DNA of 64,000 nt from an uncultured cyanobacterium (GTDB lineage Bacteria > Cyanobacteriota > Cyanobacteriia > Cyanobacteriales > CAWUOF01), in the NCBI GenBank assembly GCA_963744145.1, contig CAVUSO010000001.1:4544001-4608000 (forward strand). Reading direction: 5' to 3'. The notes under the pieces were generated by a model. It was not told the DNA's origin and did not search any database. It saw only the letters and a list, made by a program, of their open reading frames with translations. This document shows, in pieces, positions 23,012-28,167 of the stretch (positions are counted from its first letter, which is position 1; every line of letters starts with the position of its first letter). The position numbers and the translations under genes were made by a program.

Positions 23012-23050
23012 GCGGCTCGCCTCCTCTTGCGGCTCATCGTCTTCCAAATC

Positions 23051-23112
23051 TGAGATTATATACTACACAGCATCCTCAAAATCAGCGAATTGCAGAGCGA
23101 TCGCCTAGACAT
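23051..23112 (-). pseudogene. fused remnants: HEPN/DUF86 start (MSRRSL) joined at HIP1 to a PIN-toxin fragment (AIALQFADFEDAV*Y)
   Basis: ATG overlaps MNT stop; DFEDAVxY is typical of PIN toxins; junction is GCGATCGC at 23097-23104. Confidence 0.6.
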
Positions 23113-23449
23113 AGTACATCTCATCGCCAATAAACTCCCAAACCCTCGGACGAACCGCTTTTTTACTGAGCAAATCTACTTTGTTTTGCAACTTTTCCTC
23201 TAAAAAATCCCCCAGCGTCACTAGCTCTAGTCCTAACGGGCGATCGTAGTCAAACAGAATATCAATATCACTGTCAGACTTAGACTCACCTCGTGCCACC
23301 GAGCCAAATATGGCTAACTCAGTAATGCCCCATCGTTCATAAAGATAGGGTTTAAGCGATTGTAAAATAGGCATCACTTGACTTAATTCAGGAACAGCAG
23401 ACTCACGATTCATATTCATCCGTTTGTTCTCCTCTGGCATAGGAACCAA
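23105..23449 (-). CDS. minimal nucleotidyltransferase (MNT/MntA antitoxin); true start probably 23419 or 23413
   Basis: IFGSVARGE...SDIDIL...KVDLL. Confidence 0.88.
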   Translation of the reverse strand: MVPMPEENKRMNMNRESAVPELSQVMPILQSLKPYLYERWGITELAIFGSVARGESKSDSDIDILFDYDRPLGLELVTLGDFLEEKLQNKVDLLSKKAVRPRVWEFIGDEMYYV

Positions 23450-23463
23450 AAATCCCTATCTAA

Positions 23464-23652
23464 TTAAAACTTGCATAAAACTGGCATTACTTTGTATTTA
23501 TCAGCAAGGTAGATACTATAGTCTTCCTCTGTAACTGATGAGTTTTTGGCAATCCCCCGCAGTCGAGCTAAATTTTTTCGTCTTGGGCTGGGGGTAGCTT
23601 CTAGTTTGAACGATGCCAAAAGAGATTTTAACTGCCAGCGATCGTCCATCAT
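23464..23652 (-). CDS. N-terminally truncated/chimeric antitoxin-like protein
   Basis: DDRWQL resembles LPTDDRWAL of the 23993-24238 paralog; LRGIAK...YLADKY antitoxin-like tail. Confidence 0.5.
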   Translation of the reverse strand: MMDDRWQLKSLLASFKLEATPSPRRKNLARLRGIAKNSSVTEEDYSIYLADKYKVMPVLCKF

Positions 23653-23942
23653 AACTCTAAACCCTGTTGCCGATATTTCGCTAATAAGCCTTTCTCGTAT
23701 TCGCTAGAAGGCTGGATCAAAGAAATCTCTAAGCGATCTACTTCTGCAAACCACTTTTCCCAAAATTTAGAGAGTGCTATTGGTTCAAGGTCATTTTTTA
23801 CTTGATTTTGCGGTTGAATACCTTGCCGAACATTTTTTTTATATTGCAGAAAATCAACAAAATCGATCACTAGATCAATCTCTTCAGGAGTCAGTATTTC
23901 TAGCTGTTGTAGCAGCTTATCCGTTTTTTGAATCGTACTCAT
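23649..23942 (-). CDS. DUF2281-like antitoxin (start MSTIQK)
   Basis: LTPEEIDLVIDFVDFL motif; the ORF-track N-terminal extension is a VapC stub. Confidence 0.6.
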   Translation of the reverse strand: MSTIQKTDKLLQQLEILTPEEIDLVIDFVDFLQYKKNVRQGIQPQNQVKNDLEPIALSKFWEKWFAEVDRLEISLIQPSSEYEKGLLAKYRQQGLEL

Positions 23943-23996
23943 GTTCTTACCCCGCAGATAGATAATACAGCTATTGGTATCGAGCAAAAATTTCAT
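23943..23996 (-). pseudogene. VapC/PIN toxin N-terminal stub (18 codons)
   Basis: MKFLLDTNSCIIYLRGKN, coupled to the upstream antitoxin stop, runs in frame into an unrelated gene. Confidence 0.75.
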
Positions 23997-24238
23997 ATAA
24001 TTGGTTCACGTTCTAATTGTTTTGGCTGGGGATGGCGCACAAACGTTTCATCATCAATGCAGCCATAATATTGTGCAAGGGGATGGGCATCTAACCCAGT
24101 GGACGTTGTCGGTAACATGGTCACTGTTGAGGTAGCCAAACTAGATGGCTGCAATGATTCGATTAACAGCTTGAGCAACGCCCAGCGATCGTCCGTGGGC
24201 AACTCCAACACTTGCTTTTTTAATTCCTTTAAAGTCAT
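23993..24238 (-). CDS. VapB-like antitoxin
   Basis: LELPTDDRWALL N-terminus; YGCIDDETFVRHPQ...ERE C-terminus; directly upstream of a VapC start. Confidence 0.65.
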   Translation of the reverse strand: MTLKELKKQVLELPTDDRWALLKLLIESLQPSSLATSTVTMLPTTSTGLDAHPLAQYYGCIDDETFVRHPQPKQLEREPII

Positions 24239-25994: not shown

Positions 25995-26014
25995 GATTAA
26001 CCTCCATTTCGGGT
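25894..26014. repeat. 121-bp direct repeat, copy A
   Basis: matches 26580-26700 with 4 mismatches. Confidence 0.92.
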
Positions 26015-26079
26015 TGTTGTGCTGCCGTCTGTTGCGGAATTACCATTTTTTCTAAAGAGCGATTCAATTGAAACAAGAC

Positions 26080-26343
26080 CTAGCACTTTCTGTAAACATC
26101 TTTTCGGTGTTTGCATTGCAATAGGAGAACTATCAACTCTTCATCGTCGATCTCATAACGAACACGATAATCACCGATGCGAATACGGTACTCATTGTCA
26201 GCACCTTTCATTTTGATGACTCCATCGGGGCGTGGGTCTTCGGCAAGTTGCTGGATTTTAACGACGATGCGATCGTAAACGTCATTGGGCAAGGCATCTA
26301 GCTGTTTTTGCACAGCTTTAGGCGTAATTATAAAGTAAGTCAT
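26080..26343 (-). CDS. RelE/ParE family toxin
   Basis: LAEDPRPDG...KMKG...YRIRIGDYRVRYEIDD...HRKDVYR. Confidence 0.9.
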   Translation of the reverse strand: MTYFIITPKAVQKQLDALPNDVYDRIVVKIQQLAEDPRPDGVIKMKGADNEYRIRIGDYRVRYEIDDEELIVLLLQCKHRKDVYRKC

Positions 26344-26579
26344 GCCGATCGATTTGCCCGCTGTGCTATGTATTGGTCAAAGGTGGTGTAATCACCTGCT
26401 TTATAGTCAGCACGGGCAGCTTGAATTTCGGCAATATCCTCCGGAGAATCCTCATCATCGGGGAATAATTCAGCCTCTAGAAGTTCCCAAAGTTGGTGTT
26501 TTTCAGCAATTTCTAGAGATGAAATTGCCTCCAGTAGTGATTGAAATGAGATATCTACTTTCACGGTATTCTCAGCCAT
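26340..26579 (-). CDS. antitoxin cognate to the downstream RelE
   Basis: acidic, EIQAARADYKAGDYTTFDQY; ATGA overlap with RelE. Confidence 0.75.
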   Translation of the reverse strand: MAENTVKVDISFQSLLEAISSLEIAEKHQLWELLEAELFPDDEDSPEDIAEIQAARADYKAGDYTTFDQYIAQRANRSA

Positions 26580-26680
26580 TAGACTTTACCATCAATATAT
26601 TCATGTCGGAGCGGTTGGTCGGCTTCCCAGGTAAGATAGTCAGCCGGGGTCATGGATTGGGGTTGAACCCTGGCAATCAT
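26579..26680 (-). pseudogene. Uma2 5' fragment (33 aa) within direct repeat copy B (26580-26700)
   Basis: MIARVQPQSMTPADYLTWEADQPLRHEYIDGKV* near-identical to the start of 25392-25994. Confidence 0.85.
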
Positions 26681-26682
26681 GA

Positions 26683-28167
26683 TTAACCTCCATTTTGGGT
26701 AAACTCATCCATCATTATCTCAATTTCCCGCAGGGCATTGCCTAAATGGATAGCGATCGCAGCAGCAATCTCCTCTGGCTCGGTGAGTTCATCCTCTGGG
26801 TCATTGCTGGTATCGCGCAGCCAAGCAATATCCAAATTGTCATTCCGGGCAGCAATCTGCTCACGGGTGAAACATCGGAACCGCCCTTCCTCTCCCTGAT
26901 CAGTGCGCGGAGCTTTCCCCAATGGGTCATCCCCAAAAGCGGTTTCAAACTCGGCAAAATCCGCCACAGTTAACAGCCTAGTCTTGCCAAAGCTGTTCAT
27001 ATTTGCCCGTAGGTCATGTACCCAAACCGCCTTCGTGTTACCGCGATCCGTCTTACCCCGCGTGAAAAACAGCACATTAGTTTTCACACCTTGGGCATAA
27101 AAAATCCCCGTCGGCAATCGCAAAATGGTGTGCAGATCGCACAGTTCCATGAGCTGCTGTCGGAGCTTCCGCCCCGTATTGTCCTCAAACAACACATTAT
27201 CTGGTACAACCACCGCCGCCCTGCCCCCTGGTTTCAGGGCGCGATAGATATGCTCCACAAAAGCAAGCTGCTTGTTAGAGGTTTCTGCTGTTACTGAAAA
27301 ATCCGCTCTAGTGGGTCGTCCGCCGCCCTTCTTCGTTCCAAAAGGGGGATTCGTCAGGATCACATCGGCTTTACCCAAAGCTTCCCCATCTGATGACAGG
27401 CTATCCCCACACTCCACCACACTTTCAATGCCGTGCAACATCAAATTCATCAGGCAAAGACGGTGTGTATCTGGCACCAGTTCCAGCCCTCGGTAAGCCT
27501 CATGGCGCTGGAAATGTGCCTGATCCTTGGTCAAGGTATAGAGATCATCGGTGTGCCGCTTGACATACTGATCCGCCGCCACCAAAAAACCACCCGTCCC
27601 CGCTGCTGGGTCTTGGATCACCTCCCCCGCCTGGGGCTGCACCAGCCTGACAATGCAATCAATCAAGGGGCGCGGTGTGAAATATTGCCCTGCCCCTGAT
27701 TTCTTCTCAGCAGCATTCTTCTCCAGCAATCCTTCATAAAGATTGCCTAAGCCTTCTTCTCTTGCAGAAAACCAGTCTAGGCGATCGATCGCATCGGTAA
27801 GTGACTTCAGATTGGTGGGTTTCCTTAGCCTGGTTTGAGCATCGGTAAAAATAGCCAGTACCACAGAGTCGGCAACTTTCTTCTGATTCCCCAGATCCAG
27901 CAAAAGCTGACGGTAAAACTCCAACTGTTCCAACCCTTCGCGGCTGTCGAGTTCACTCCAGCGATATTCAGTCGGTAAACGGCTTTCGCGCCCTGTCTCC
28001 GCCAGCATCTTGAGAAATAACAAATAGGTCAGCTCGGTGACATATTCGTTATAGGTGATGCCATCATCACGCAGGATATGACACAAATTCCAAAGTTTCC
28101 CGACGATATCACGGGTTACGCTACCCGTCTTACCGTTATCAGTACCCATCAAGCTGTCTTTCGCCAC
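26683..28167 (-). CDS. hsdM: type I R-M methyltransferase subunit (m6A)
   Basis: GAGQYFTPR, DPAAGTGG motif I, NPPF motif IV, LRLPTGIFYAQGVKTNV (EcoKI-like). Confidence 0.95.
   Translation of the reverse strand: MAKDSLMGTDNGKTGSVTRDIVGKLWNLCHILRDDGITYNEYVTELTYLLFLKMLAETGRESRLPTEYRWSELDSREGLEQLEFYRQLLLDLGNQKKVADSVVLAIFTDAQTRLRKPTNLKSLTDAIDRLDWFSAREEGLGNLYEGLLEKNAAEKKSGAGQYFTPRPLIDCIVRLVQPQAGEVIQDPAAGTGGFLVAADQYVKRHTDDLYTLTKDQAHFQRHEAYRGLELVPDTHRLCLMNLMLHGIESVVECGDSLSSDGEALGKADVILTNPPFGTKKGGGRPTRADFSVTAETSNKQLAFVEHIYRALKPGGRAAVVVPDNVLFEDNTGRKLRQQLMELCDLHTILRLPTGIFYAQGVKTNVLFFTRGKTDRGNTKAVWVHDLRANMNSFGKTRLLTVADFAEFETAFGDDPLGKAPRTDQGEEGRFRCFTREQIAARNDNLDIAWLRDTSNDPEDELTEPEEIAAAIAIHLGNALREIEIMMDEFTQNGG

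Follow-up and report, generated by a model that had tools for sequence, protein, structure and literature searches.

A stack of toxin-antitoxin modules with degraded toxins between hsdM and hsdS of a cyanobacterial type I restriction-modification operon

We describe here a 3.67-kb row of small genes that separates hsdM from hsdS in a type I restriction-modification (R-M) operon of an uncultured cyanobacterium (order Cyanobacteriales, CAWUOF01; GenBank assembly GCA_963744145.1). The operon lies in the window that we analysed, a stretch of 64,000 nucleotides (nt) spanning positions 4,544,001 to 4,608,000 of contig CAVUSO010000001.1, and coordinates count from the first base of this window. Eight toxin-antitoxin (TA) modules are recognisable in the row; one has a whole toxin and in seven the toxin is destroyed. 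We read the hsdM/hsdS junction as a cargo slot in the operon that has been filled with TA modules, which then decayed toxin-first, and put the probability of this reading at roughly 60%. The outline that had been proposed from the sequence alone (the original prediction), a TA cassette stack inside a type I R-M operon with its toxins cut to stubs, is upheld.

The minus strand carries every gene of the locus, in the order hsdR, hsdM, small genes, hsdS (Table 1), and the co-oriented insertion is as long as the original prediction had it (about 3.6 kb). By domain content, hsdR, hsdM and hsdS qualify as a type I R-M operon, with predicted methylation and restriction activity. Two features mark the organism as a cyanobacterium: the nearest orthologues of hsdM are cyanobacterial, and the window contains 70 exact HIP1 octamers against 0.48 expected. 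The genome assembly comprises 7.7 Mb in 4 contigs. The last ~13 codons of hsdM form a new tail, unlike the ancestral tail to which they were compared. hsdS starts at a GTG, as it does in two related loci (L012 and L015), within an open reading frame (ORF) that is open from a TTG at 23047.

Table 1. Features of the hsd operon and of the array between hsdM and hsdS, in the direction of transcription (window coordinates; aa, amino acids; MNT, minimal nucleotidyltransferase)
Feature	Position	Strand	Description
hsdR	28149-31535	-	1128 aa, whole; Pfam EcoEI_R_C 147.5 bits, ResIII 107.8, HSDR_N 33.5, Helicase_C 27.3
hsdM	26683-28167	-	494 aa, whole; Pfam N6_Mtase 252 bits, HsdM_N 36.7
121-nt direct repeat, copy A	26580-26700	-	Uma2 stub plus last 18 nt of hsdM
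Uma2 5' stub	26579-26680	-	33 codons and stop; 97% over 33 aa to whole Uma2 (tblastn)
Antitoxin of RelE/ParE pair	26340-26579	-	79 aa; overlaps toxin start by 4 nt; assigned by position
RelE/ParE-family toxin	26080-26343	-	87 aa; Pfam ParE_toxin 43 bits (cut-off 23), profile positions 3-89 of 89
121-nt direct repeat, copy B	25894-26014	-	19-nt relic of hsdM 3' end, then start of whole Uma2
Whole Uma2-family (PD-(D/E)xK-like) gene	25392-25994	-	200 aa; Pfam Uma2 129 bits; PADLOC PDC-S03
Antitoxin C-terminal remnant	25349-25402	-	Second copy of 23993-type antitoxin, lacking the N-terminal part; repeat D3, 85% to 24005-24058
AF2212-like (former DUF104) antitoxin	25086-25328	-	80 aa, full length; Pfam PF01954 24.9 bits (cut-off 21.6)
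PIN stub 1	24995-25099	-	First ~15-16 codons from 135-aa PIN partner, then unrelated sequence to stop
81-aa antitoxin 1 (VapB-like)	24745-24990	-	Full length; rare unnamed family
PIN stub 2	24677-24748	-	24 codons, TAA at codon 12; remainder of gene deleted
MNT1	24347-24652	-	101 aa; Pfam NTP_transf_2 64.9 bits; PADLOC PDC-S09
Probable HepT fragment	24319-24345	-	RDQLIHDYY around Rx4H motif; 67% over 9 aa to L016 HepT, E 0.074 (weak)
81-aa antitoxin 2 (VapB-like)	23993-24238	-	Paralogue of 24745-24990; 68% identity to L021
PIN stub 3	23943-23996	-	18 codons, 62% over 16, E 6e-5 to 0.006; inside chimera
Chimera	23649-23996	-	115 aa; PIN stub 3 fused in frame to DUF2281-like antitoxin (23649-23942)
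62-aa ORF	23464-23652	-	Antitoxin of 73-79-aa family; first ~14 codons absent; family stop codon lost
PIN stub 4a	23456-23476	-	MQVLI then stop; likeness to partner starts by eye, too short for statistics
MNT2	23105-23449	-	114 aa; Pfam NTP_transf_2 48 bits; PADLOC PDC-S09
PIN fragment 4b	23057-23104	-	Residues 85-100 of ~137-aa PIN; internal TAG
Relic of ancestral hsdM 3' tail	23012-23046	-	Directly in front of hsdS
hsdS	21677-23011	-	Whole, two target-recognition domains; Pfam Methylase_S 93 bits, 2 stretches

The toxin losses are visible as stubs. Neither PF01850 (PIN) nor PF01934 (HepT) has a match in the array, and no HepT with an Rx4HxY motif is present there; what is left are N-terminal stubs of 5 to 24 codons and one 16-codon mid piece of PIN genes. 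Four stubs match whole toxins that stand beside homologous antitoxins in other cyanobacteria, so that the search for intact donor pairs suggested at the outset was successful for these four; a fifth match is weak. Stub MNAVDPNILIY (25099) is identical in 87% of 15 codons to the N-terminus of the 135-aa PIN partner (E 4e-4). Stub MSYLLDTNACI (24748), which ends at a stop codon, corresponds to PIN residues 1-24 of locus L020 (67%, E 2.6e-7), with homology that extends beyond the TAA. The stub at 23996 is a PIN start as well (Table 1). All three had been named in the original prediction. The HepT likeness proposed for SSRDQLIHDY (24354), around its Rx4H motif, is there but weak, and MQVLI (about 23476) resembles the start of the PIN partner of the 62-aa ORF's family at the level of visual comparison. 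The piece near 23112 had been assigned wrongly: of the supposed HEPN stub, MSRRSL plus DFEDAV, the second part is a PIN mid fragment (4b; 62-73% over 15-16 aa, E 0.002-0.004) and the first is without support; a HEPN origin is rejected. No trace of HepT follows MNT2. Because pieces 4a and 4b of the same PIN flank MNT2, this gene sits inside a broken PIN gene. An exact HIP1 site (23097-23104) marks the 5' edge of fragment 4b; as a general cause, HIP1-mediated deletion is unsupported, with 3 of the 70 HIP1 sites falling in the array and one of them at a join.

The antitoxin side of the array is better preserved. The seven antitoxin-type ORFs without a whole toxin are the ones originally listed: the AF2212-like gene, two 81-aa paralogues, MNT1, MNT2, the chimera and the 62-aa ORF. 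Six antitoxins are full length, that of the RelE pair included; one other is fused to a PIN stub, one is truncated at its N-terminus and a ninth is left as a 54-nt remnant only. Among 301 genomes of the order, 47 have the AF2212-like antitoxin and 39 a member of the family of the 62-aa ORF, whose partner is a PIN of ~137 aa. The family of the antitoxin at 24745 is far smaller, with 12 proteins, all unnamed, in a library of 5.8 billion; the window's member keeps all ten invariant columns of the family alignment and has alanine in place of a nearly invariant aspartate. The two 81-aa genes share a 117-nt repeat (D2, 82%) that takes in their leader. An origin of this leader from the hsdM tail was considered and found no significant match (best E 1.4). 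MNT1 and MNT2 show the GS and DxD motifs of minimal nucleotidyltransferases in translation, and NCBIfam MntA scores them at 48.5 and 36.6 bits, both below its cut-off of 60. Homologues of 86 aa to the antitoxin part of the chimera are followed in L016 and L009 by PIN genes of 129 and 139 aa; comparison with the relatives' toxins detected no trace of this partner at the locus.

The RelE/ParE pair (26080-26579) is a whole RelBE/ParDE module and, as predicted, the only one in the hsdM-hsdS interval with a whole toxin. Its antitoxin has a weak VapB15-like match in NCBIfam (E 5.6e-4, below cut-off). Between relE and Uma2, a candidate C-terminal relic of HepT (26055-26014) was rejected as not significant (50% over 14 aa, E 2.1). 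The original feature list missed the whole Uma2 gene, the Uma2 stub, the 121-nt repeat, the antitoxin remnant and the old hsdM tail before hsdS.

To place the stack among relatives, we read the ORFs behind hsdM at 79 loci with HsdM orthologues of 66-92% identity. In the non-cyanobacterial loci hsdS almost always follows within 300 nt of hsdM (56 of 61). The 18 cyanobacterial loci divide into 3 with adjacent genes, 8 with inserts of 0.7-3.7 kb and 7 with no hsdS found downstream, the last owing to short contigs or a different gene order. On this gene order, the putative slot is specific to the cyanobacterial branch of the operon family. The inserts are stacks of the same gene families as in the window, with varying content and mostly with whole toxins, whose PIN and HepT identity Pfam confirms; this is what the comparison of intervals called for in the original prediction brought to light. 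The insert of L010 consists of an 81-aa antitoxin (77% identical to that of the window), a 136-aa PIN, an MNT and a 117-aa HepT; that of L020 of antitoxin, PIN, Uma2, MNT and HepT; that of L011 of Uma2, antitoxin and PIN; and that of L014 of three whole pairs and Uma2. The stack of L016 is of the same kind. An antitoxin of the 81-aa type is thus followed by a whole PIN in both L010 and L020. Uma2 homologues (69-77% identity) occupy the same interval in L009, L011, L014, L017, L019 and L020. Matches to hsdM at E ≤ 1e-50 were found in 8 of 41 genomes, the source genome included; none is in the same family, and there is no second genome of the genus.

Scars at the joins point to how the stack grew. 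Window positions 23046-22985, which include the old tail in front of hsdS, are 85-89% identical in nt (E 3e-8) to the junction of L012 and L015, two uninterrupted loci in which hsdM overlaps hsdS. As ~35 nt of the ancestral hsdM end is kept before hsdS, the stack must have inserted within the final ~13 codons of hsdM. At the opposite end, the two copies of the 121-nt direct repeat (family D1) are 97% identical and flank the RelE pair, which is the pattern that would be expected of a single crossover with DNA bearing the junction, or of unequal exchange. L009 holds three copies of the hsdM 3' end; two are internal relics that share 93% of 68 nt and precede an 81-aa-type gene and Uma2, respectively. 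L009 also has repeats of 93-252 nt (87-96% identity), and large internal duplications occur in both L009 and L017. The new hsdM tail travels with the cassettes. Three kinds of scar speak for growth at the hsdM side, namely the whole pair next to hsdM within a young repeat, the ancestral tail at the far end and the relics in L009. The original proposal of accretion with polarity, newest cassettes by hsdM, agrees with these scars and fails in its strict form, since at the far end MNT2 separates two pieces of a single PIN gene; this insertion shows that growth at the hsdM side is not the sole route.

The cargo slot would accordingly have a simple history. TA modules (antitoxin with PIN, MNT with HepT, RelBE) and Uma2 genes would be stacked in it, with incoming cassettes joined to the conserved 3' end of hsdM, leaving hsdM-tail relics and duplicated junctions; arrival in this form would make the hsdM side the main site of growth. 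Later reshuffling of the stack would come from segmental duplications, deletions and internal insertions. The seven toxins were lost through internal deletions, two nonsense codons and a single insertion or replacement. Deletion of a toxin would be harmless or helpful to the cell, deletion of the antitoxin of a live toxin would be lethal, and modules that had lost both genes would leave no trace, so that the visible outcome would be a row of antitoxins with toxin stubs. The antitoxins are probably still transcribed together with hsdM and hsdS, judging from the gene arrangement. Their retention needs no special function.

Decay of this kind can be followed in related loci. For the AF2212/PIN family, 14 loci were fetched: the partner 135-aa PIN is whole in 6 and broken in 8, by independent nonsense, frameshift or deletion events. 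PIN genes have also been lost by deletion in L013 and L017. Genome-wide, 21 MNT matches stand against 8 HepT loci, 3 of the 8 with internal stops, and many MNT genes are solitary. Together, the AF2212/PIN losses, the HepT stops and the deletions in L013 and L017 indicate that toxin-first decay is frequent in these organisms. The losses also look recent, as the stubs are about as similar to their donors as the antitoxins are: in the pair with L010, 18 of 22 stub residues are identical (our count from the alignment) against 77% for the antitoxin, and in the pair with L089 the stub reaches 87% and the antitoxin 91%.

Several further observations were made on these relatives. In two AF2212/PIN loci from different cyanobacterial families (L090 and L100), a stop falls at the same tryptophan codon of the PIN gene, which could reflect shared ancestry via transfer or a recurrent hit. 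In L017 (9400-9800 of that locus), the PIN that is whole in L019 (4900-5550) is internally deleted and the antitoxin runs into the last ~20 toxin codons. In both L017 and L019, the tail of HsdM terminates in a motif that resembles the C-terminus of the 81-aa antitoxin family (E 6.8e-4). In L013 (6011-6370), the HepT of an L010-like stack is broken by an unrelated, proline/glycine-rich stretch of ~45 codons that may be a small repeat inserted there. Uma2 often stands directly behind hsdM in the hsdM-hsdS interval of this operon family, with two tandem copies in L017, and ~25 further Uma2-like matches lie elsewhere in the source genome. Between the window and L010, L009 and L011, synonymous divergence (dS) is 1.1-1.4 for cassettes and, for the same genome pairs, 0.68-0.88 for hsdM, so cargo and methylase gene may not share one history.

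Some of the evidence weighs against toxin-first decay in a passive slot. Toxin loss is more complete here than in the relatives' stacks: in eight of these, 14 toxins are whole and 6 are broken, and in the array of the window the numbers are 1 and 6-7 (Fisher p 0.02-0.03). The counts come from a reading of the relatives' ORFs and are rough, and the loci are not independent. Elsewhere in the genome ~32 of 38 PF01850 matches are whole (p 8e-4 with a cautious 31/7 split); short stubs would escape this search, which overstates the contrast with the array. Two whole ParE-type modules stand upstream of hsdR, so toxin loss clusters between hsdM and hsdS, a pattern that simple decay would not lead one to expect. 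The six full-length antitoxin ORFs have the conserved residues of their families, apart from the changed aspartate in 24745, and within the AF2212 family the median ratio of nonsynonymous to synonymous divergence (dN/dS) is 0.117 where both toxins are broken and 0.132 where both are whole, with no relaxation visible. The recombination route, finally, is one that we infer from scars only.

The same observations invite the explanation that the antitoxins were kept by selection after toxin loss, as a library expressed from the R-M operon that would neutralise homologous toxins of incoming plasmids or phages or cross-regulate the PIN and HepT toxins of the genome. The anti-addiction idea behind it was reportedly treated by Saavedra De Bast et al. 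in 2008. A survey of Klebsiella, where orphan antitoxins are abundant, discusses them as possible anti-addiction modules (PMC7192599). Within the array, six full-length antitoxin ORFs stand beside seven dead toxins (Fisher p 0.015 for toxins against antitoxins). The genome also offers many possible targets, with ~32 PIN matches that are whole and 5 HepT loci without breaks. In a complex model, residues 46-71 of the orphan at 24745 are placed on the whole PIN of L010 with a score of 0.82 against 0.00 for the best control, contacts agreeing between runs at ≥92% and the partner's predicted local distance difference test (pLDDT) at ≥69; of 157 solved complexes 116 attain the mark used, and of 215 mismatched pairs 2 do, counts that hold only roughly here because the model was built on alignments of our own. 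At least one antitoxin therefore still looks, in the model, able to bind its toxin type. The model supports a kept binding segment, not a function, and likeness to solved VapBC-like complexes may explain the pass.

Pairwise dN/dS, which had been proposed as one of the checks, was usable for one family. Values for the AF2212 family (window against each locus) lie between 0.11 and 0.26 and combine divergence that preceded the toxin loss with divergence that followed it. Comparison with the nearest loci gives a dS of 1.1-2.5, or saturation, for the 81-aa genes, the antitoxin part of the chimera, MNT1 and Uma2, so that selection after the loss is not measurable and dN/dS cannot resolve why the antitoxins were retained. 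Toxin-first decay yields the same picture without selection, the stubs are as conserved as the antitoxins, so that the losses look recent, and damage has reached the antitoxins too, in the form of a truncation, a fusion and a remnant. Toxin loss is common in the AF2212/PIN family elsewhere. The immunity library of the original prediction was not borne out, and we regard a selected library as possible but unlikely.

Constraint from the operon, or a new role for the survivors, would be another reason for open ORFs: hsdS may need transcription and coupled translation through the array, or the solitary MNT and Uma2 genes may serve as accessory defence genes. Gene ends overlap or abut at many joins, among them three 4-nt ATGA overlaps (26340/26343, 23993/23996 and 23649/23652), the coding (minus) strand has no terminator-like site inside the array, and the largest intergenic gap is ~108 nt. 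A promoter scan was uninformative (14 sites against 16.5 expected). MNT1, MNT2 and Uma2 fall into PADLOC's PDC classes, and MNT2, as noted, has no HepT trace beside it. Yet translational coupling is interrupted at five joins by gaps of 63-108 nt, the operons of relatives work with very different stacks or lack one altogether, and PDC status is a predicted function. We rate this explanation as improbable.

A bolder proposal gives the orphan antitoxins an active place in the restriction system: expressed along with hsdM and hsdS, they would counteract the toxins of incoming TA-bearing plasmids or phages, also after restriction has destroyed the invader's DNA, and the hsdM-tail relics would be portable homology for swapping antidote cassettes between cyanobacterial operons. 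If so, the cell could cut addictive elements without death by stable toxins. We consider this decidedly improbable at present.

The integrity of the sequence was checked in public sequencing runs. A search with a 6.7-kb stretch returned a single DNA run that holds it, from a soil metagenome that is possibly the sample of origin, and no RNA run among those listed. Short-read contigs of this run (X1) cover 30 of 30 bins and span the MNT2/hsdS, chimera/62-aa ORF, MNT1/HepT-fragment and AF2212/PIN-stub joins with 0-1 differences. They differ from the window twice, by G>A at 25184 and by one base fewer at 23018. As X1 may be the source sample, it serves as a check on the assembly only. Without this base, the old hsdM tail and hsdS lie in different frames, which favours the GTG start; the difference at 23018 is either a strain difference or an assembly error. 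That the stubs stem from misassembly or sequencing errors in a metagenome-derived or long-read genome, for which the sole DNA holder and the two differences might speak, is extremely improbable, because the X1 contigs bridge the joins and the toxins were lost by deletions that span hundreds of bases and not by errors in single bases.

The array resembles several known systems in part. PrrC in EcoprrI is a gene embedded in a type I R-M operon. A "guilt-by-embedding" survey has treated genes inside type I R-M operons, PDCs being candidates embedded in R-M, BREX and DISARM loci (10.1101/2024.01.29.577857); other papers note PIN TA genes coupled to type I R-M subunits (PMC5499597) and HEPN genes embedded in R-M operons (PMC3710099). 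As with such passengers, the window has defence- or TA-type genes between hsd genes, in the same orientation and in an arrangement that varies among relatives; unlike them, its cargo is a stack of eight TA modules with seven toxins destroyed and with relics of the hsdM end at the joins. As with the orphan antitoxins of the Klebsiella survey (PMC7192599), antitoxins occur without a working toxin in its original context and with toxin remnants beside them. The window differs in having seven in a row in one operon-embedded interval, not scattered single loci, and neutralisation here is putative. Canonical VapBC and MNT-HepT (type VII) modules share with it the gene order, overlaps of 4 to 14 nt, the families of the surviving partners and the homology of the stubs to PIN and HepT; the toxins of these types in the array, by contrast, are non-functional, and its 81-aa and 62-aa antitoxin families match no Pfam or NCBIfam model.

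Chromosomal superintegrons are one-directional rows of small, packed cassettes behind an upstream promoter, with new cassettes mostly promoter-proximal, and some carry TA genes. The array is likewise a one-directional row of small cassettes in close packing, probably read from upstream and apparently growing mostly at its promoter-proximal end. Unlike an integron, it has no integrase gene within ~8 kb on either side and no attC-like repeats at the cassette borders, where only hsdM/Uma2 and paralogue repeats were found, and we do not class it as one. That the joins are hsdM relics points to homologous or illegitimate recombination. In the literature covered, which does not extend to the supplements of preprint 10.1101/2024.01.29.577857, we found neither a comparable stack without toxins nor joins marked by relics described.

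The array operon is flanked by genes for a channel protein, a GntR regulator, a cysteine synthase-like protein (PALP) and a glycosyltransferase, and by ParE modules. Upstream of hsdR, on the minus strand at 31582-32831, lie two apparently whole ParE/RelE-type modules: one joins a 76-aa antitoxin to a 96-aa ParE toxin with a 4-nt overlap, and the other pairs a 95-aa ParE-like gene with an uncharacterised 105-aa gene. A second, distant type I hsdS/hsdM pair was detected by tblastn near the operon, ~5-8 kb before the start of the window (genome C1:4536273-4539082).

On present evidence the locus chiefly documents, and documents well, processes that are already known. It shows clearly, in nature, the build-up of passenger genes in a restriction operon, with the ancestral junction, duplicated junctions and intact sister stacks in other cyanobacteria all still legible. 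It also shows the death of TA modules, in what appear to be seven independent toxin-first cases within 3.7 kb, by deletion, nonsense and insertion. Both processes are usually seen one locus at a time. Were the antitoxins kept for a purpose, restriction and anti-addiction would be linked in one operon, and for that question the locus offers a useful matched set of orphan antitoxins and donor toxins.

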